Origin: a virus | Lineage: Duplodnaviria; Heunggongvirae; Uroviricota; Caudoviricetes | Reading direction: 5' to 3' (one strand) | DNA: 11,931 nucleotides | Virus record (IMG/VR): IMGVR_UViG_2529292834_000013 | Shown here: positions 1-11,704 of the stretch, in pieces | Position numbering within the stretch: the first letter of the stretch is position 1 | Layout of the letters: each line of letters opens with the position of its first letter | Made by a program: the position numbers and the translations under genes | Notes under the pieces: model-generated | What the model was told of the DNA's origin: nothing | What the model saw: only the letters and a program-made list of their open reading frames with translations | Databases searched by the model: none

Positions 1-892
<892 letters not shown>

Positions 893-906
893 CTTATTGA
901 TTTAAA

Positions 907-952
907 TGGTGCCGATAATAGGAGTCGAACCTACGACCTTCGCATTACGAAT
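907..952 (-). other. 3' 46 nt of a tRNA-Thr(CGU) gene (thrW-like), including anticodon loop, T-arm and CCA end; att-site remnant, not a functional tRNA
   Basis: Reverse complement of 907-952 reads TTCGTAATGCGAAGGTCGTAGGTTCGACTCCTATTATCGGCACCA: anticodon CGT in a loop, T-stem GTAGG/CCTAT around TTCGACT, acceptor 3' strand and CCA. Sequence beyond nt 952 does not continue as D-arm or acceptor 5' strand. Confidence 0.65.
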
Positions 953-1031
953 TATAAGAATCCGCTTCTAATTCAAAGCATTACCCCATCAACACTGCGC
1001 TCACACGTCCCACCACATCAAAACATGTAAA

Positions 1032-1071
1032 GCCTTGCAAGCCATTGCGAGGCTTTATGTGTCTCAGTTTT
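1032..1071. terminator. Candidate hairpin with T-rich flanks on both strands (possible bidirectional terminator)
   Basis: GCCTTGCAA (1032-1040), loop GCCA, TTGCGAGGC (1045-1053): 9-bp stem with one G-U pair, followed by TTTATGTGTCTCAGTTTTGT; on the other strand the stem is followed by TTTACATGTTTT. Weak. Confidence 0.25.
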
Positions 1072-1335
1072 GTCCCACCTTTTATTACGACTTGCATAGC
1101 CAATGAAGATAAACGTGACGACAAACGGCGCAGCAATCTTCCTTTCTTTCACACTTTCCCAACCCAGCATGTATACTTTTCTGCCATAACTAAAGTGAAT
1201 GCCTGTTATGAGCAACAAACAGGCATTAGCGCCGCTAGCATATTAGCTACCATTCGACTGCCACACTTAAGATTGATTTCTTAAGTATAACCCGGTTTCT
1301 AATACTACTTATATATTCAGCTCTGAGATTCATTT

Positions 1336-4300
1336 TTATCTCGTAAAGCTAGTTTTATGACTTCCTGTTAGCTGACTGTCTTCATAATAAAATGCTCCAC
1401 TAAACTCCTGTCGACCATAATGATGACTTGATATGAGTGAGCCCCCTATAACGCCCTTTTCACCTAATAATGTCCAAACGATTTCAAAACCATTGTCCCT
1501 TAACATTGTTAAAAATGGTTCTTTTTTAACAAGTAGATGCGGCTTTGAAGCATATACAGCTTCAGCTGCAAAGCAAACCATAGTTCCATTTTCATCATTG
1601 AAGCTACCCTCTACTTCCCCACTTTTTAATCCCATCTTTTCAAAGATTAAGTTACTAGGCTTCAAAAAATTCAAAGTTTCTATTTTTGATTTGTCGAACT
1701 CCTCTTCCCACAAATAATTAATCGAAGTGACACTAACATCAGCTATCTTAGCTCCAGACTCCCGGTCTGTTACCGAAGTCCAGTCAGATCCACCATAATA
1801 ATCTGATTTAAAAGACTTAAATGCTTCGGACCAATAGTACTCCCTATTAAATAATTGGTATCTATCAGTACATTCCGGCATCCACCTGCCCATAAAGTCT
1901 TGAGCTATTGCCCAACATCTAAAATTTTCAAATTCTTCAACTTTAACGATATAACTTCTGATCTGATACCAAACCTCTTTTCGTGGGTGCCCCCAATCAT
2001 CGTTTCCAATAATTTTTGGTTCTTTCCATGATGGATGACTTTCTAATACTATCCATTCATCACCATTATCATCTTTAACTTCAATAAAAGCATATGAATT
2101 AGTTATAGTAGTAGAACTTTTAACCCAGTCTTCATTAGAGCAAGTCCAATCAAACACTTCATCATTAAGCCACCACATTTCTTTATTGCTTATTTTTTTC
2201 GTTCCAGTTTCTTTAAGTAAGATAGTGGGATCTATATCTCTTACGTAAGGCTCCCATGGCCCTTGGTATGGATTTTCCTTTCGTTCGTCACCATAACCTT
2301 CAAAACGAGTAAAATTATCGGCTAGCCTTGCCATGTATTCATAATAAGCAATCCATTGGGATTTTTTACCAATCCGTTCTTGGAATGCCTCTCTACGTCC
2401 ACGTCCAGTTCCTATTTGTTGGTCAAAATTACCATGCTTCTCCGGATCCCAACCAAGCTCTATAACACGATTGAATATAAATTGTTGAGCTAGTCGAAGA
2501 TCAAAGTGTTTATCAGTTTCCAGCAGATTATTATTATGATCCAGGTATGGCTCTATTTCATTTTCAAACTCACTTAACAGATCGTATGACAATGAATTCT
2601 TAAATAATTTCTTGCTCGCCTTTATTTCTTCCTGTGCTTTTCTACCGACCACACGACCAAATTTAATTCCTTCGCATTTATCATCATAAATGAAAGGATC
2701 TGTGGCATCATACAAGTCTTTTTGTTGATCAGTTAGTTTACATTTGAAAGTTTTAAAAACTTGCTTACGGTCAACAGGGGTTTCATTAAACTTGCAACCA
2801 GACCAATCAGAATGATTATAATTTGTTCCAATAGTATATCGTGAAAAGTCACCATCTTCCATAATAGAGCTCCAGAGTTCCCGATAAGGTTCTTTATCAT
2901 AAAGGGACTCTAGTTCCTCTTTTGAAGGAATCTTGTCAGGCCAAATGCTGTTGTAGGGTGGTCTAGTCTTGGATAATTCAATGCTTTCAAGTTCCAATCC
3001 AAGATGATTAGCAAATTCAATAATCTCTCTAGCATAATCTCTAAGTAATATATTTGGATACACATACTTAGAACAAAATACCTTTTGGTAAACAGTTTCG
3101 GCTAAATATTTTAGTTCTTTAATATTATCAGTTCGCAATGTACAGCCTAATGCAACTGCAAATATTCTTTCCCAAACGTAAGGATCATTTACACCATAAA
3201 ACTTATCAATTATTTTTCTCAATACAGGAATTCTTGGCTCGAGTAAACTCACTAAAGCCTTAGTTGAGCAATCTCGAAGTTCTCGGTTACTAGAAGTTAA
3301 AAACCAGCATAAACTAGTTGCAACTAGCTCGATTGACTCATCCGAAACAAAGCTTTTATCTGTTCTGGCCCATGCCCAATCGATTAGATGCCTAAATGCT
3401 GAGTCTTCACTATATTTATATTTAAGTTCTGTAGTCCAAAACGAATCTCGATTTGCCAAAGAATAATCTTTTAGCCAATCATGCAAGAAATTAGCATTAA
3501 AGGGATGGCCAACTAAACCTGAAATAGAGATCACTGCCTCGAGGAAATGATCAAAACTATCTTTAAATTTAAAAACATGTTCATTGATGAAAGGTCTAAT
3601 TTTTTCGAAATAAATAGCCTTAATATCGCGCCATATCAAGCTATCAATAAAGGCTTCTAGTAATTTAAGATTATTGCTGAACTCCGGCAGAAATTCATAA
3701 AGCTCTTTTTCATACCTTTCTGGCAATTGAATAGACAACGCCTCTACTATTCCCGATTTTATATAAAAATCACATTCATCATGAAAATATTTTTTCAGAC
3801 GACCATCAGGCTTAAATTCACTTTCGATATTTTCAACATCATTTAATAAAAAATTAACAGTTAAATGATCATCAAACCTTTCAAAAGCCACATAAACTAC
3901 TTCCTCAGTAGAATTATCATCATTTCTCACTATGCCTTTAGTCAATAATCCTTCGTCAATCAAGGCGCTGAGGAAGGTTTTATCAGCAACATAATCATTA
4001 ACTACAGATTGAACCACTGAGTGAGCATCTTTAAGTGAAATACTATTACGACCAATCTCTAATTTGAATTTTATGATTTCATTGAGAGCATCTTTAACAA
4101 GAGGAAAACTGGGATCGAATGCATATTTTTTTGGCGATGCTAATGATTTATTTACCCCTTCAACTAAAAAGTTAAAAATATTTGAAATCCCATTAAATCC
4201 AACAGGCACTTTGGTTAAACCATTTTTCTTAATGCCTTCACACAATAACTTAAGAAATAGAGGATTTTTAAACTCTGGATTAAGGTTAGGAGATGAAGGC

Positions 4301-5790
4301 CTCTCAATATTGTAATAATCATAAAATAGACTAACCGCTTCCAACTCAACGTTCTGGAATCCAATATGTTCATGAATTTCAAAATTATTTCGCACAACAT
4401 TCTCATGTGAAATTGTTACATTTCTATATGTTGTTCTGACTGACATTATCAGACCAAGCCATTCAAAGCATCTGATTTCATCGACAAAACTGTTAATATT
4501 GTCATTCCAGAATTTATTTCCATTACCTTCATTAATAGCATCAATAAAAACTAAGACTCTTTTTCCTGTTTTTTTGCCATATAAATTCAGTTTTTCTAGG
4601 AATTCACGAGAAGTGATTTTAAGCTGTAATCTCTTGAAGATTTGTGACCATGGAGATTCATCTGAAGTAAGTTGTTGCCCTAGTATGAGTAGTGAAGGAT
4701 ACCCAGAAGCAATTCGATTTTTAATCACATCAGCCAGTAAATGAGACTTACCAATTCCTGCTTTTCCTTCGAGAAGTAAGAATGGGTTGTTAGCCAACTT
4801 CACTGTTGTTGAATTAATGAATATACGTAATTCATTGCACGCATAGTCAAATTCCCGAAGCATTCGCAGAGTAGATGAATACTTATCACTGTAATGCTTG
4901 GTTTCACCTACTTGCTCTGACTTTTCTCGGAGTTCCCACAATATTGATACCGCTCCGCCAATAGCTGTCTGGCAGCTAGAAACATAGTTATTAAATTTAT
5001 TTATAGGGATTTCATCTAATTTAGAAAAATTAATCTCCTGATATATATCAGAAATTTCTTTTAAGGACTGGTTTATTTCAAATAATTCTGAGGAAATTAC
5101 ATCGCAACTATGTAATTTCTTTCCAGCGACCAGAAAGCTATCTATATGCGAATAAAATATTTTAGAAAAATCATTAGTTCTACCGAGGCCATCAAATATC
5201 TCTGCTATTTCTAGCTTTACGTTGAGTTCGGGTGTGTATCGACCTCCCAAGTCAGCTATTGCTTGACTATTTTTTTCATTTAACCAATCATCACTTAAGT
5301 GAAAAGTTAGTTTCTCATCTATAGACCGTAAAATAAGTTTGACTTGAATGAGCTCTTCATTAATATCGAATATTTTTTCTTTATACGTTTCTTCGATATG
5401 TAGCTTTTTTAACTTCGAACAATTATTGATTTTTAATGATAACATCCCATAAAAAAGGCTGAGTTGTTGTTGAGTTGGGGGAGTGACGCTTGGATATTCT
5501 TTGAACTTGTCTAATAACATCTCTTTGTCAGGGAACTCTTTAAAAAGGATGTACTCATTCAACATCTCAAACAATGGTTTAGAATGATAAAATGGAATTG
5601 CTCCACTTTCTACTGGATATGTTTCTTCAAACTCAATTGCCGTCTCTTCAATTAGTTGATATAATCTATCCACATATTTTTCTGTGGGGAATAATGCTTT
5701 CTTAATCCAACTATATCCTTCTTGAGAAATGAATTGATCAATAAGTTTAGTTGCTACATAAGTTGCCACTGTAATTGATATGGGTTCCAT
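1336..5790 (-). CDS. Large (1484 aa) STAND-class P-loop NTPase with unassigned ~330-aa N-terminal domain and ~1000-aa C-terminal region; candidate Avs/bNACHT-like antiviral sensor
   Basis: Single uninterrupted 4455-nt ORF. Walker A LLLEGKAGIGKSHLL (about aa 340-355), Walker B KRVLVFIDAINEG (about aa 410-422, D-[GA]-x-[DN]-E form), and a downstream hhhTxR-like LIMSVRTT (about aa 447-454). Shine-Dalgarno GGGAGAAG sits 6 nt upstream of the ATG. Visibly more AT-rich than flanking prophage DNA (not computed). Confidence 0.85.
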   Translation of the reverse strand: MEPISITVATYVATKLIDQFISQEGYSWIKKALFPTEKYVDRLYQLIEETAIEFEETYPVESGAIPFYHSKPLFEMLNEYILFKEFPDKEMLLDKFKEYPSVTPPTQQQLSLFYGMLSLKINNCSKLKKLHIEETYKEKIFDINEELIQVKLILRSIDEKLTFHLSDDWLNEKNSQAIADLGGRYTPELNVKLEIAEIFDGLGRTNDFSKIFYSHIDSFLVAGKKLHSCDVISSELFEINQSLKEISDIYQEINFSKLDEIPINKFNNYVSSCQTAIGGAVSILWELREKSEQVGETKHYSDKYSSTLRMLREFDYACNELRIFINSTTVKLANNPFLLLEGKAGIGKSHLLADVIKNRIASGYPSLLILGQQLTSDESPWSQIFKRLQLKITSREFLEKLNLYGKKTGKRVLVFIDAINEGNGNKFWNDNINSFVDEIRCFEWLGLIMSVRTTYRNVTISHENVVRNNFEIHEHIGFQNVELEAVSLFYDYYNIERPSSPNLNPEFKNPLFLKLLCEGIKKNGLTKVPVGFNGISNIFNFLVEGVNKSLASPKKYAFDPSFPLVKDALNEIIKFKLEIGRNSISLKDAHSVVQSVVNDYVADKTFLSALIDEGLLTKGIVRNDDNSTEEVVYVAFERFDDHLTVNFLLNDVENIESEFKPDGRLKKYFHDECDFYIKSGIVEALSIQLPERYEKELYEFLPEFSNNLKLLEAFIDSLIWRDIKAIYFEKIRPFINEHVFKFKDSFDHFLEAVISISGLVGHPFNANFLHDWLKDYSLANRDSFWTTELKYKYSEDSAFRHLIDWAWARTDKSFVSDESIELVATSLCWFLTSSNRELRDCSTKALVSLLEPRIPVLRKIIDKFYGVNDPYVWERIFAVALGCTLRTDNIKELKYLAETVYQKVFCSKYVYPNILLRDYAREIIEFANHLGLELESIELSKTRPPYNSIWPDKIPSKEELESLYDKEPYRELWSSIMEDGDFSRYTIGTNYNHSDWSGCKFNETPVDRKQVFKTFKCKLTDQQKDLYDATDPFIYDDKCEGIKFGRVVGRKAQEEIKASKKLFKNSLSYDLLSEFENEIEPYLDHNNNLLETDKHFDLRLAQQFIFNRVIELGWDPEKHGNFDQQIGTGRGRREAFQERIGKKSQWIAYYEYMARLADNFTRFEGYGDERKENPYQGPWEPYVRDIDPTILLKETGTKKISNKEMWWLNDEVFDWTCSNEDWVKSSTTITNSYAFIEVKDDNGDEWIVLESHPSWKEPKIIGNDDWGHPRKEVWYQIRSYIVKVEEFENFRCWAIAQDFMGRWMPECTDRYQLFNREYYWSEAFKSFKSDYYGGSDWTSVTDRESGAKIADVSVTSINYLWEEEFDKSKIETLNFLKPSNLIFEKMGLKSGEVEGSFNDENGTMVCFAAEAVYASKPHLLVKKEPFLTMLRDNGFEIVWTLLGEKGVIGGSLISSHHYGRQEFSGAFYYEDSQLTGSHKTSFTR

Positions 5791-5796
5791 GATTAG

Positions 5797-5804
5797 CTTC
5801 TCCC
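5797..5804 (-). promoter_or_regulatory. Ribosome-binding site of the large NTPase gene
   Basis: Minus-strand GGGAGAAG with a 6-nt spacer before the ATG at 5790-5788. Confidence 0.5.
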
Positions 5805-6312
5805 AACAATTAAATTTTTACCAAGCGTTTATGCTTTCCAATAATTATTACATCTCACCGTAAAACATATTTATATGGTTTTAAACCTATCTGTAAATCT
5901 TGACACCTTGGCAAGAACCTAATCCTACATTTTAATATCAATCTATATAATATCGCCAGCGTCATAATAATCGGGCTTGTCATAGTTAAGTATTCGCCTC
6001 CGATATCCCAATGAGATAAGTAAGTCATAAGTGTTATAAATGAAAAGGTTACATTTTTCAAAGAGTTATTATGATGGAATATTATTCAAAACGCAATGTA
6101 GCTGAAACGAGTCTGAGTTTAACATCCGCTCCTAGTACATAGTAGTCCTAGGGACAGTGGCGTAAAGTCATAGATGGCCGGTGGGAGGTGATGGAAATCC
6201 TCTCATGCAAAAAATACATAAAATCGATAACGGCTGGAAATCATTCAATACTCGCACTATCGAAAGTTCACCAGCCAACCGCGCACAATCTTGCATACGA
6301 CATGCTACGGTT

Positions 6313-6867
6313 TCATTTATCTCCGACCGGAAACTTCTTATACAGTGTCGATATACCAACATCATAGATGATCGCCACCTTCTGGCGAGGAACGCCTGAT
6401 GCAATTAATCGCCCGGCCTGCGCCCATTGTTCTGGTGTAAGTTTGGGACGACGTCCCCCAATTCGTCCCTGTGCGCGAGCAGCTTCCAGTCCAGCTTTTG
6501 TTCGTTCAACAATCAGTTCTCGTTCCATTTCAGCCAGGGCACCCATCACATGAAAGAAAAAACGCCCCATCGGTGTGCTGGTATCAATAGCATCCGTCAG
6601 GCTGCGAAAATTAACGCCACGTTCGCGCAACTCCTCAACCAGAATGACCAGATGCCGCATACTACGCCCCAGCCGATCCAGTTTCCAGACCACCAGAGTG
6701 TCACCTGCCGATAATGTCCTGAGCAGTTTTTTCAGTCCCGGTCTTTCGGACTTCGTACCGCTTATCTTGTCTTCAAAAATCAGTTCACATCCTACACAGT
6801 TCAACGCATTACGTTGTAGATCGGTGTTCTGGTCATTTGTTGATACGCGAACATAGCCAATAAGCAT
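6313..6867 (-). CDS. pin: Serine recombinase, DNA invertase of the Pin/Gin/Hin/Cin family (184 aa, apparently intact)
   Basis: Starts MLIGYVRVSTNDQNTDLQRNAL (catalytic Ser in VRVSTNDQ), has DTLVVWKLDRLGRSM and MGRFFFHVMGALAEMERELI, and ends with the HTH ...VAIIYDVGISTLYKKFPVGDK. Very close to e14 Pin / Mu Gin as I recall them. The ORF-track N-terminal extension (MASFLLLPGGST) is rejected in favour of the canonical MLIGY start at 6867. Confidence 0.9.
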   Translation of the reverse strand: MLIGYVRVSTNDQNTDLQRNALNCVGCELIFEDKISGTKSERPGLKKLLRTLSAGDTLVVWKLDRLGRSMRHLVILVEELRERGVNFRSLTDAIDTSTPMGRFFFHVMGALAEMERELIVERTKAGLEAARAQGRIGGRRPKLTPEQWAQAGRLIASGVPRQKVAIIYDVGISTLYKKFPVGDK

Positions 6868-6893
6868 GGTAGATCCCCCAGGTAAAAGCAGGA

Positions 6894-7391
6894 ATGATGC
6901 CATTTGCTCGTTATTTCTGCATTTTCATAAACCTTGGTTTGGGAGAAGGTGCTCCAGCTATTGGCGTTCCGTTCTTCTGGCCGTCCGCTGCAATGCCAAA
7001 TACTGTAATCGACAGCTGGTCCAGTATGGTGTTTTTGAAGTTCAACGGCGCGAAATTCTCTGCCACTGATTATCCTGTGCTGGCGAAAGTGTTTCCTTCG
7101 CTGGTATTACCTGAAGCCCGCGGTGATTTCATTCGTATCTGGGATGACGGGCGAGGTGCAGACGGTGGTCGCGAATTATTAAGCTGGCAGGCAGCTACAA
7201 ACTTTTCTCAGTTTGCCGGGAATATAGGCGAAGGGGCGGGACACGCAATTAACTTTCATGATGGCATCGCCGGAAATCAGCCAGGATTTTCACGATTTAA
7301 TTTCACCAGTAACTCTGTGGGTGATGGTGTGAATTTTGTTGCTGTCAGACCGCGAAATATTGCATTTAACTTTCTGGTGAGGGCTAAATAA
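6894..7391 (+). CDS. Phage tail-fibre protein, C-terminal variable (receptor-binding) domain, variant A; lacks a constant N-terminal shaft
   Basis: ORF contains GVPFFWPS...YPVLAKVFPSLVLPEARGDFIRIWDDGRGADGGR, the motif set of Mu S / e14 Stf-type fibre C-termini. Its stop overlaps the downstream tfa start (TAATG at 7389-7393). The first ~19 codons (MMPFARYFCIFIN...) lie inside the inverted repeat; the true translational start is uncertain. Confidence 0.65.
   Translation: MMPFARYFCIFINLGLGEGAPAIGVPFFWPSAAMPNTVIDSWSSMVFLKFNGAKFSATDYPVLAKVFPSLVLPEARGDFIRIWDDGRGADGGRELLSWQAATNFSQFAGNIGEGAGHAINFHDGIAGNQPGFSRFNFTSNSVGDGVNFVAVRPRNIAFNFLVRAK
6922..6947. other. gix/hix/pix-like 26-bp invertase crossover site (left)
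   Basis: TTTTCATAAACC-TT-GGTTTGGGAGAA: two 12-bp inverted half-sites around a 2-bp core, matching the TTnnnnnAAACC-NN-GGTTTnnnnnAA pattern of Gin/Hin/Pin sites. Confidence 0.6.
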
Positions 7392-7984
7392 TGAAACCTG
7401 TTTTTGATGAAAATGGGCTGGCTACAGTGCCGGGCGATATGCGTTGTTTTTATTATGATGCTGAAACATCTGAGTATACGGGCTGGTCTGATGAATATAT
7501 TAATACTGGCGTAAGTATGCCCGCCTGTTCCACTGGTATTGACCCTGGCGAAAACATTCCGGGAAGAGTGGCAGTATTTACAGGTAAGGGATGGCGCCAT
7601 GAAGAAGACCATCGCAATGAGACTGTTTACTTAATCGAAAATGGCGCAGCTGTTACAGTGGATTATATCGGTGCCATCAAAGACGGTTATGTCACGATTT
7701 CACCGTTAACGCCATACGATAAATGGGATGGTGAGAAATGGGTGACAGACACTGAGGCACAACACAGTGCCGCAGTAGACGCGGCAGAAGCACAGCGCCA
7801 GTCACTGATTGATGCAGCAATGGCTTCCATTAGTCTGATTCAGCTGAAATTACAGGCCGGACGGAAACTGACTCAGGCAGAAACAACCCGACTTAACGCC
7901 GTGCTGGATTACATTGACGCGGTGACGGCAACAGATACCAGCACCGCGCCGGATATCATCTGGCCTGAACTGCCGGAGGCGTAG
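7391..7984 (+). CDS. Tail-fibre assembly protein (Tfa/U-like), variant A
   Basis: 197 aa, translationally coupled to the fibre domain upstream; C-terminal DTSTAPDIIWPELP motif shared with Tfa chaperones. Confidence 0.8.
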   Translation: MKPVFDENGLATVPGDMRCFYYDAETSEYTGWSDEYINTGVSMPACSTGIDPGENIPGRVAVFTGKGWRHEEDHRNETVYLIENGAAVTVDYIGAIKDGYVTISPLTPYDKWDGEKWVTDTEAQHSAAVDAAEAQRQSLIDAAMASISLIQLKLQAGRKLTQAETTRLNAVLDYIDAVTATDTSTAPDIIWPELPEA

Positions 7985-8384
7985 GCCATTCAATATCGGG
8001 TGCTGTTGACGTATCAACACGCATCAGCAGCACACGGTATTTCTTCCATTGGGTGAGAGTTGTAGCTTCTTCATCAGTTGCGATATCAGCATCAACAGCA
8101 TCCTGACGCCAGGATATTTCACTGTCAGCTTTTTCCCGTAATTGGGATTTTTTAACTTCAGCAATAGCTATTAATTCCTTTTTGGTCGGCTGAGGAATAT
8201 CTATCAGTGCTGGTTTTCCATTCAGTGTTCCAATCTGTTTTCCTGGTGGAATATCCATAAATAACTTCTTATGTTCTTCCTCACTGACTATTACACCATC
8301 ATCAGGCCACAGACCTGATGCCTCAAATTTTTCTTTCTCCGATATGGGGAAAAAGCCATTTGCTTTAGCGCTCCATACGTACAT
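7956..8384 (-). CDS. Tail-fibre assembly protein (Tfa-like), variant B
   Basis: 142 aa; N-terminus MYVWSAKANGFFP and C-terminus WKKYRVLLMRVDTSTAPDIEWP are typical of e14/lambdoid Tfa proteins. Convergent with variant A, with 29-bp 3' overlap. Confidence 0.8.
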   Translation of the reverse strand: MYVWSAKANGFFPISEKEKFEASGLWPDDGVIVSEEEHKKLFMDIPPGKQIGTLNGKPALIDIPQPTKKELIAIAEVKKSQLREKADSEISWRQDAVDADIATDEEATTLTQWKKYRVLLMRVDTSTAPDIEWPTPPAVQAR

Positions 8385-8385
8385 A

Positions 8386-8721
8386 TCAATACCCCACCGC
8401 TATAATGTCCACATTAAATCCCCCGGGACCTGCCTGCCAGATGCTGGCCCCTGTTAATGATTTTGTTTGATGAACAACCGCCACATTTGCTGGCGATTGT
8501 GTTTCAGTTGTTACAGTACCGATATCATTCCAGTTAATTGAGATGGAATAGTTCGTTGTTGTAAACGACCGGGGGAAAGTTATGTGTCTTACATTGGTGC
8601 CGACAGGAAATCCAAGATAAACACGCTGAATTATCATTCCTCCAGGTAACATAACCCAGTTAGCACCTTCTCCAAAACCAACATTTATGAAAATGCAGAA
8701 ATAACGAGCAAATGGCATCAT
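8386..8721 (-). CDS. Phage tail-fibre protein, alternative C-terminal variable domain, variant B; lacks a constant N-terminal shaft
   Basis: Begins with the same repeat-encoded peptide MMPFARYFCIFINVGFGEGA as variant A, then diverges completely; sits directly upstream of and coupled to tfa variant B. Identity rests on position and architecture, not a recognised motif. Confidence 0.55.
   Translation of the reverse strand: MMPFARYFCIFINVGFGEGANWVMLPGGMIIQRVYLGFPVGTNVRHITFPRSFTTTNYSISINWNDIGTVTTETQSPANVAVVHQTKSLTGASIWQAGPGGFNVDIIAVGY
8668..8693. other. gix/hix/pix-like invertase crossover site (right), one half-site degenerate
   Basis: TTCTCCAAAACC-AA-CATTTATGAAAA on the + strand: the left half fits the consensus; the other half reads AAATG where AAACC is expected. 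Confidence 0.5.
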
Positions 8722-8747
8722 TCCTGCTTTTACCTGGGGGATCTACC

Positions 8748-9266
8748 ATGCTTATTGGCTATGTTCGCGTATCAACAAATGACCAGAACACCGATCTACA
8801 ACGTAATGCGTTGAACTGTGCAGGATGCGAGCTGATTTTTGAAGACAAGATAAGCGGTACAAAGTCCGAAAGGCTGGGACTGAAAAAACTGCTCAGGACA
8901 TTATCGGCAGGTGACACTCTGGTTGTCTGGAAGCTGGATCGGCTGGGGCGTAGTATGCGGCATCTGGTCATTCTGGTTGAGGAGTTGCGCGAACGTGGCG
9001 TTAATTTTCGCAGCCTGACGGATGCTATTGATACCAGCACGCCGATGGGGCGTTTTTTCTTTCATGTGATGGGTGCCCTGGCTGAAATGGAACGAGAACT
9101 GATTGTTGAACGAACAAAAGCTGGACTGGAAGCTGCTCGCGCACAGGGACGAATTGGTGGACGTCGTCCCAAACTTACACCAGAACAATGGGCACAAGCC
9201 GGACGATTAATTGCATCAGGAGTTCCTCGCCAGAAGGTGGCGATCATTTATGATGTTGGCGTATAG
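8748..9266 (+). CDS. pin: Second copy of the Pin-type DNA invertase, inverted relative to the first; frameshifted near the 3' end so the HTH recognition helix is missing (172 aa; probably defective or a pseudogene)
   Basis: About 98% identical to the left copy through ...QKVAIIYDVG, then V-stop instead of ISTLYKKFPVGDK. Substitutions P->L (KSERLGLKK) and V->A (NCAGCE). SD-like GGGGGA about 8 nt upstream of ATG 8748. Confidence 0.8.
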   Translation: MLIGYVRVSTNDQNTDLQRNALNCAGCELIFEDKISGTKSERLGLKKLLRTLSAGDTLVVWKLDRLGRSMRHLVILVEELRERGVNFRSLTDAIDTSTPMGRFFFHVMGALAEMERELIVERTKAGLEAARAQGRIGGRRPKLTPEQWAQAGRLIASGVPRQKVAIIYDVGV

Positions 9267-9359
9267 TCTTTGTATAAGAAGTTTCCAGTCGGAGATAAAT
9301 GAAACCGTAGCACGTCGTATGCAAGATCGTGCTGCGGTTTATGCTTATCACTTAAAGAC

Positions 9360-10229
<870 letters not shown>

Positions 10230-10310
10230 CTAAGTCTTTGAATTTACATAGTACAAAAAAGATACTTTTTCCTCATAATGTGAATTAATTTTATGTTTCG
10301 TTTTATGATT

Positions 10311-10951: not shown

Positions 10952-11704
10952 GTGGATGATATGGCAACTACATGTTCAGTTATATTGATTTTGGAGTCCT
11001 TTGATGTTTATTTAGGAAAAGAGATTGTGTTTCTGGAGAGAGGTTCATCTGTACTTGTCGACTCTAGCTCTAGAGATTTTTTCCTGACATATCCTGAAAG
11101 AGTGATAGTGGCGGATTTTGGCGCTGAGTTTATTAGTCGCTATTTGAAAGCTAATAACTTAAGGGATATTTCTGATTGTAGGGAATATCCATCTTATTTA
11201 AAAATAAACTTTGCTGACTTCAGTTTAATTAAAGGATTAATTAGTTGGGCTAATCACTGTGCTGAATACATAGAAATTTTTGATGAGTCTATTGCTTTTA
11301 CATGTCTCTCTGCATTTTCTTCTGAAAAACAATTTGGAGTATTTCTGTTTGGATGTTTGAAAAGCACAGGGGCTAAAGTTAAAACGATTATTCATACGGA
11401 TTTATCTGCACCATGGCGTCTTAAGGATATATCATCAAGATTATATCTCAGCGAAAGTTTACTAAAGAGGAAATTGAAAGAAGAGGGGGTATCATTCAGT
11501 AAGATCATACTTGATGAGAGGATGCAAATGGCTGAATATTTACTCAGCACTCGTTGTTATCCTATTAGTAAAGTAGCTAAGGTCTGTGGTTATGCCAGTG
11601 TCTCATACTTTACTTATGTATTTAGACGTTATTTTGGTGTTTCTCCAAGTCAATACTCTCAGAGGAGTTCAGAAAGTAAAATTCTTACTCACCAGGGAAT
11701 CTGA
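10952..11704 (+). CDS. AraC/XylS-family transcriptional regulator (YdeO/AppY/EnvY-like)
   Basis: C-terminal double HTH: PWRLKDISSRLYLSESLLKRKLKEEGVSFSKIILDERMQMAEYLL...VAKVCGYASVSYFTYVFRRYFGVSPSQY. AT-rich. The true start may be the second ATG at 10961 (better spacing from GGTGG at 10946-10950). Confidence 0.8.
   Translation: MDDMATTCSVILILESFDVYLGKEIVFLERGSSVLVDSSSRDFFLTYPERVIVADFGAEFISRYLKANNLRDISDCREYPSYLKINFADFSLIKGLISWANHCAEYIEIFDESIAFTCLSAFSSEKQFGVFLFGCLKSTGAKVKTIIHTDLSAPWRLKDISSRLYLSESLLKRKLKEEGVSFSKIILDERMQMAEYLLSTRCYPISKVAKVCGYASVSYFTYVFRRYFGVSPSQYSQRSSESKILTHQGI

Follow-up and report, generated by a model that had tools for sequence, protein, structure and literature searches.

Two copies of a pin-type DNA invertase gene flank a single invertible segment in a prophage remnant of Escherichia coli, and one of them ends prematurely, before the helix that recognises DNA. 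The questions raised by this locus are how the shorter copy was damaged, how the element came to hold two invertase genes, and whether the truncated product is a decaying duplicate or still takes part in inversion. The window analysed here is the whole stretch of 11,931 nucleotides, a piece of E. coli chromosome adjoining the pao (yagTSRQ) operon and carrying a degraded prophage. The ORF list and the RefSeq annotation of the related locus L001 place in it an integrase fragment (341-892, plus strand), the AVAST type 2 gene avs2 (1336-5790, minus strand; 1484 aa), a LEM-3-like GIY-YIG gene (9360-10184, minus strand) and an AraC-family regulator (10952-11704, plus strand), to the right of which lies an IS3-family fragment. 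The two invertase genes are the left pin (6313-6867, minus strand), full length with 184 aa from its MLIGY start and an intact C-terminus, ISTLYKKFPVGDK (WP_000905042.1), and the right pin (8748-9266, plus strand), in which ORF and translation give 172 codons followed by TAG and which RefSeq names pinE (WP_000904963.1). Each belongs to one arm of a 671-nt inverted repeat (left arm 6283-6953, right arm 8662-9332; 96% complementary) composed of a pin gene, its upstream region and a crossover site. The invertible segment, V, spans positions 6936-8679 between the two crossover (pix) cores, as delimited by ORFs, RefSeq annotation and the occurrence of both orientations in relatives; its ORFs are two tail-fibre C-terminal fragments (6894-7391, plus strand; 8386-8721, minus strand) and two tail-fibre assembly (tfa) genes (7391-7984, plus strand; 7956-8384, minus strand). 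The constant part of the tail fibre is absent on both sides of the segment.

Positions 5800-10300 of the window are matched in 11 complete genomes at 99.7-99.8% identity, and none of 5426 complete genomes is identical to the window. Its first 240 nucleotides have no match in L001 and its relatives, where (L001 1201-1440) an IS66-family element abuts the integrase fragment, so the window comes from a carrier strain lacking the junction between the IS66-family element and the integrase. A stretch of 241 nt at the 3' end of the integrase fragment (838-1078) recurs inverted, at about 94% identity, some 140 nt past the right end of the window (positions 9321-9559 in L007-L016), and may be the remnant of an attachment-site or integrase duplication. 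The cargo behind the two pins differs, avs2 following the left and the LEM-3-like GIY-YIG gene the right, both of them defence-type; downstream of pin in the relatives L004 and L006, the corresponding site is occupied by an mcrA fragment, or by a DNA methyltransferase together with a restriction endonuclease. A hotspot for cargo appears to lie between pin and the attachment site. In several genomes RefSeq calls the tail-fibre gene or fragment adjoining pix an 'integrase' (L001 8131-8592; L002 5717-6463), probably through an annotation transfer error.

The left and right pin genes align without a gap over their entire length, with no insertion or deletion between them, which rules out the frameshift to which a sequence-only reading of this DNA had attributed the truncation. 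At the critical stretch the left copy reads GGT ATA TCG ACA CTG and the right copy GGC GTA TAG TCT TTG, six substitutions within 11 nt, one of which (C>A at gene nucleotide 518) converts the TCG codon of Ser173, present in the left copy and in the closest intact alleles, into a premature amber TAG (9264-9266, plus strand). The right product ends at Val172 (...IIYDVGV; RQKVAIIYDVGV, then TAG) at the point where the left copy continues into its C-terminus. Translation through the stop recovers an untranslated in-frame remnant, SLYKKFPVGDK followed by TGA (9267-9302, plus strand), which is what remains of the recognition helix and the C-terminus; because the old frame is intact behind the TAG, the lesion is a nonsense substitution. 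The central observation of the sequence-only reading, that the right invertase lacks its HTH recognition helix, is borne out by this stop and by a correspondingly shortened profile match, even though the cause is a different one. The two copies are also less alike than it had supposed when it took them to be identical through ...DVG, since V25A and P43L distinguish the right protein from the left ahead of the stop and the genes differ at 22 nucleotides overall.

The history of these differences can be read against the closest intact allele, WP_000904983.1, which e14-family prophages in L004, L005 and L006 carry as their only pin. This allele reads GGC GTA TCG ACT TTG at the critical stretch, so that four of the six clustered differences between the arms are ordinary allelic differences. 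The stop is derived, TCG having become TAG with respect both to this allele and to the left copy. Only three positions are private to the truncated allele, and all three alter the protein: nucleotide 128 (P43L), nucleotide 518 (Ser173 to amber) and nucleotide 520, the last being a T174S change (ACT>TCT) in the remnant, two nucleotides past the nonsense change and private with respect to L004, L005 and L006. A statistical test for relaxed selection would need more than three private changes, and since the clone is young, the lack of more decay or of repair says little.

The sequence-only reading had wished to see a homopolymer or assembly error excluded, and public genomes provide the answer. 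A 131-nt stretch spanning the stop is 100% identical in 18 of the 5426 complete genomes, all 18 from E. coli and with the allele at one and the same locus, and 233 public contigs (NCBI, ENA and Logan) carry the exact 172-aa protein, which refutes a sequencing error; the lesion is, moreover, a base substitution and not a homopolymer indel. The probability that the stop is a sequencing or assembly artefact and the true gene full length is accordingly negligible. The 18 carriers come from several countries and laboratories, several of them being named ETEC isolates; L1_E925, TW10598, B2C, FORC_031 and O6:H16 2014EL-1346-6 are examples. Among the contexts listed for the 172-aa protein, all ten have the GIY-YIG gene, the AraC-family regulator and pao as neighbours, with Avs2 close by, and a single homologue of 134 (P0122) ends at the amber position. 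The truncated allele is real and clonal, and is confined to one clone and its two-pin locus. An intact paralogue is present in every one of the 18 carrier genomes, which at megablast-level similarity contain pin sequences at these two places only, with a third in E1620 alone. RefSeq annotates the truncated product as pinE, a 'site-specific DNA recombinase', and sets no pseudogene flag in L001 and L003, an omission that inflates counts of active invertases in carrier genomes.

What the truncation removes is well delimited. The Pfam HTH_7 profile is matched over positions 1-43 of 45 in the left copy and over only 1-34 of 45 in the right, so that the complete three-helix HTH_7 with its recognition helix is present in the former and absent from the latter. 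Alignment to the Hin DNA-binding-domain chain 1HCR (query residues 142-182 to chain residues 5-45) places Pin Ser173 at Hin Ser174, which we take to be the first residue of HTH helix 3 in the Hin-hix structures. Helix 3 of Hin makes base-specific contacts in the major groove, as seen in structures 1HCR and 1IJW. The 172-aa product retains the catalytic domain, the dimerisation helix (E-helix), the minor-groove arm GRRPK and helices 1 and 2, helix 1 being the Fis-contact surface in Hin (PMC3798978). The activity of Gin chimeras needs both the catalytic domain and a functional DNA-binding domain (PMC3510496). By analogy with the Hin and Gin structures, the 172-aa product would be unable to recognise pix half-sites by itself.

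The state of the catalytic domain is less clear-cut. The Resolvase domain (PF00239) is detected in both copies (E = 1.2e-51 in the left and 2.4e-50 in the right, at right-copy residues 3-135), and Arg7, Ser9 and Arg42 are present in both. The private P43L change (CTG codon at 8874-8876, plus strand), however, adjoins Arg42, which is invariant among the aligned homologues, and affects a position occupied by Pro in 129 of the 131. Arg42 aligns with R45 of the gamma-delta and Tn3 resolvases, and in Tn3 the mutants R45A and R45K no longer carry out resolution in vivo, their cleavage being slowed 45- to 300-fold (PMC2794168). The claim of the sequence-only reading that the catalytic domain is intact is thereby made doubtful; judged from the protein sequence, the domain is not clearly intact. 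The 5' part of the gene, in which invertases of this family contain a Fis-dependent recombinational enhancer, is homologous in the two copies by the ungapped alignment, although the Fis consensus is too degenerate for a site scan to settle the matter. As regards expression, the right pin retains its start codon and upstream region, which in the window are identical to those of the intact copy, so that the truncated polypeptide is probably made. A promoter and terminator scan of positions 6200-9450 returned no usable promoter upstream of either pin, promoter-like sites being fewer there than in shuffled sequences.

The element carrying this gene has nevertheless continued to invert. As in DNA invertase systems, inverted 26-bp sites with a 2-bp core flank the segment next to the pin genes: the right pix, TTCTCCAAAACC AA CATTTATGAAAA, lies at 8668-8693 (plus strand; core AA at 8680-8681) and the left pix, TTCTCCCAAACC AA GGTTTATGAAAA, at 6922-6947 (minus strand; core AA at 6934-6935), and their sequence matches the inverted repeat of the e14 P segment, CCTTCTCCCAAACCAA (quoted in PMC12529663). 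Among the 18 complete genomes, 12 have the orientation of the window and six the opposite one, and draft genomes also show both. What distinguishes the two sites is an inner base (C or A) and the pair immediately outside the core (GG or CA), and at every examined locus with an intact two-pin structure the inner base moves with the segment end while the outer pair stays with its pin, which confines the point of exchange to the 7-nt AAACCAA that holds the core AA. Comparison of the genomes thus indicates that inversion is site-specific recombination at the pix core. RecA-type inversion through the 671-nt arms was considered as the main route and rejected, given that the arm polymorphisms stay with their flanks and exchange occurs within 7 nt; among the two-pin loci examined, no chimeric pin was found.

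The timing of these inversions bears directly on the truncated gene. The three private mutations are common to all carriers, and the stop therefore arose before the carriers diverged. V25I in the left pin is found both in 254D-1, which is flipped, and in 360D-1 and FORC_031, which are not, and genomes lacking V25I also occur in both orientations; by parsimony, this implies at least two flips after the stop arose, so that any inhibition exerted by the truncated copy is partial at most. Given that megablast finds only two pin places per genome, E1620 excepted, the left copy is the likely enzyme behind flipping, though a more distant invertase acting in trans could contribute.

For the element itself, flipping is predicted from the sequence to have almost no coding consequence. 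Reading into either end of the segment starts from short, nearly identical leaders (MMPFARYFCIFINLGLGEGA, MMPFARYFCIFINVGFGEGA) whose coding sequence lies opposite the upstream region of each pin, and the tail-fibre fragments at 6894-7391 (plus strand) and 8386-8721 (minus strand) begin with the leader MMPFARYFCIFIN... and run through pix into the segment, like stfE of e14. An inversion-made chimera, StfE2, has been reported to block adsorption of phage T2 (PMC12529663, 2025). Two relatives show other rearrangements. In L012 (GCA_033843605.1; 520-2588 and 5731-5927) avs2 contains, at window position 3811/3821 and accompanied by a duplication of 11 nt, a whole copy of the V segment that includes the two pix sites and, at either end, about 45 nt from the 5' part of pin, and about 100 nt of V are left between the two pins; this is either a secondary rearrangement disrupting avs2 or an assembly artefact. 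In the draft L011 (GCA_000517245.1; 1-5914) the block from int to avs2 (window 241-5811) stands in reverse orientation, separated by about 130 nt from 210 nt of V-segment sequence that adjoin the truncated pin, an arrangement that suggests a larger inversion with one end inside a tail-fibre fragment.

The two arms have also exchanged sequence in another manner. A gene-conversion tract private to the window extends over positions 8732-8811 (plus strand; at most 8684-8820), or 80-137 nt, within which the right copy has the bases of the left at nine positions, located in the upstream region and in gene nucleotides 18-64; the bases specific to the right copy are kept there in all related genomes examined, namely L001, L003, L020-L022 and the draft loci. 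This tract indicates that the arms also interact by homologous, non-crossover exchange. Such conversion could in principle remove the amber codon from the right copy, or carry it over into the left.

The origin of the two-pin arrangement is best explained, on the basis of comparative sequence data, as the result of two e14-family phages having fused at the invertible region, with deletion afterwards. A single full-length pin adjoins the same GIY-YIG gene in the intact prophages L002 and L019, the latter located beside pao, and both have the order tail genes - YmfQ - tail fibre - pix - V - pix - pin - GIY-YIG. The pin protein of L019 is identical to that of the left copy, and the intact prophage of strain TK3896 carries this protein as its single pin. 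Homology of the window to the single-pin prophage L002 starts at about position 6929, inside the left pix, and the contents of the window's left half, namely int, avs2, pin and V, come in the order known from the circular 44.8-kb phage-like element pCE-O153H30-A (L017), where int, avs2 and pin adjoin one another across the region in which attachment is expected. We propose that the ancestor was an e14-family prophage beside pao, ending in tail fibre - pix - V - pix - pin - GIY-YIG, and that in one E. coli clone a second, related phage joined this resident by recombination, either invertase-mediated or homologous, in or at the invertible stretch. The int - Avs2 - pin end of the second phage would have replaced the left part of the resident at the pix site, and most of both phage genomes would then have been deleted, leaving pin - pix - V - pix - pin. 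Under this scheme the truncated copy would be the resident prophage's own gene, and the intact copy would have arrived with avs2.

Taken with this origin, the state of the right copy makes it probable, with good but not complete confidence on our part, that the right pin is a decaying, redundant paralogue in a fused and degraded prophage. In a setting where an intact pin lies in cis and a tail fibre to switch is missing, the right copy has gathered P43L, the amber codon and T174S. The sequence-only reading had left two options for the truncated protein, inert or dominant-negative, and the former fits the evidence best, considering the three private protein-altering changes, the confinement to one locus and the insertion of an IS100 element inside the truncated pin of strain E1620 (L023, 4256-6733). 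In that strain the adjoining tail-fibre and tfa genes are annotated as frameshifted, which together with IS100 shows the right side of the element decaying further. Dimers of serine recombinases form through the catalytic domain, and under the dominant-negative option truncated and intact Pin would pair, by way of this domain and the E-helix, into heterodimers that, with one DNA-binding domain, bind pix poorly and lower the inversion rate. Such a role is physically conceivable, as the dimer interface and probably the same expression signals are kept: residues 1-172 retain the whole Resolvase domain with two residue differences from the intact copy, and the shared upstream region makes co-expression plausible. 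It is not supported by the pattern of decay, in which P43L strikes a near-invariant position and the allele, restricted to one clone, has been broken by IS100 in E1620 with no sign of need; the genomes that underwent at least two site-specific flips all carry the stop, and a DNA-binding domain without its third helix would be unlikely to fold, such products often being degraded. We consider damping of this kind improbable. The compound proposal that the 172-aa Pin has been kept as a natural poison subunit tuning down flipping, and that the cassette was made by invertase-mediated pix recombination of two phages, appears more doubtful still; if true, it would mean that DNA invertases can fuse prophages.

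Decay of a redundant paralogue must also be weighed against readings in which the right gene still yields a working enzyme. Read-through or suppression of the amber codon could supply some full-length protein, bearing P43L, T174S and an inserted residue at position 173, and the frame behind the TAG is indeed intact for all 11 remaining codons; basal read-through of TAG in E. coli is low, nothing points to a suppressor tRNA, and we regard this route as highly unlikely. The truncated protein could alternatively remain an active invertase, either binding through its GRRPK arm and helices 1 and 2 or being recruited by an intact subunit. The retention of the minor-groove arm and of the helix that contacts Fis in Hin, together with the presence of Ser9 and Arg7, speaks for this possibility, but the helix that bears the base-specific contacts in Hin is missing, Gin-derived chimeras depend on a functional DNA-binding domain, and P43L sits beside the residue whose Tn3 equivalent, when mutated, leaves the enzyme inactive in vivo, all of which makes residual activity very unlikely.

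Several features of the locus are shared with known inversion systems. The Resolvase catalytic domain of both window copies is common to Pin of e14, Gin of Mu, Cin of P1 and Hin, the invertases of tail-fibre or flagellin segments, and the left copy matches the Gin structure 3UJ3 with E = 3.5e-93 over 181 residues. Two tail-fibre C-termini and two tfa genes make up the invertible DNA, a content shared with the segments of e14, Mu and P1. Classical systems, however, have one invertase gene beyond one end of the segment and the constant part of the tail fibre beyond the other, whereas the window has an invertase gene at both ends, one of them cut before helix 3, and no constant part. Damaged invertase paralogues are likewise known from cryptic prophages, pinH of E. 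coli K-12 being a decayed invertase pseudogene of this kind, and in public data the pin alleles P0011 and P0082 have frameshifted C-termini that leave HTH_7 unmatched, while P0071 carries an internal deletion and occurs on 68 contigs. The right copy resembles them in that a premature end deprives a pin paralogue of its C-terminal DNA-binding part within a defective prophage; unlike these other decayed genes, it lies in cis with an intact, 96%-identical copy in the other arm of the same element, and the two copies of the window still exchange sequence.

A further parallel is offered by PinQ, PinR and PinE, which are all intact, are encoded by different cryptic prophages and act on the P segment of e14, whose crossover repeat is the one present here (PMC12529663). 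In both cases redundant invertases are found with a P-type segment in defective prophages beside defence genes, and StfE-type short ORFs run from the pin side into the segment in the PinE system as in the window. In contrast to the PinQ, PinR and PinE set, the second copy of the window belongs to the same element and is truncated. Seen against these systems, the right pin is best read as a case of ordinary, well-explained pseudogenisation in a mildly unusual two-invertase arrangement, and a clear example of a redundant invertase gene decaying once a second copy arrives, with little weight for biology at large. Its distinctive value is that of a natural experiment, in which 96%-identical inverted invertase genes flank a segment and crossover at a 7-nt core and conversion over 80-137 nt are both legible from polymorphisms.
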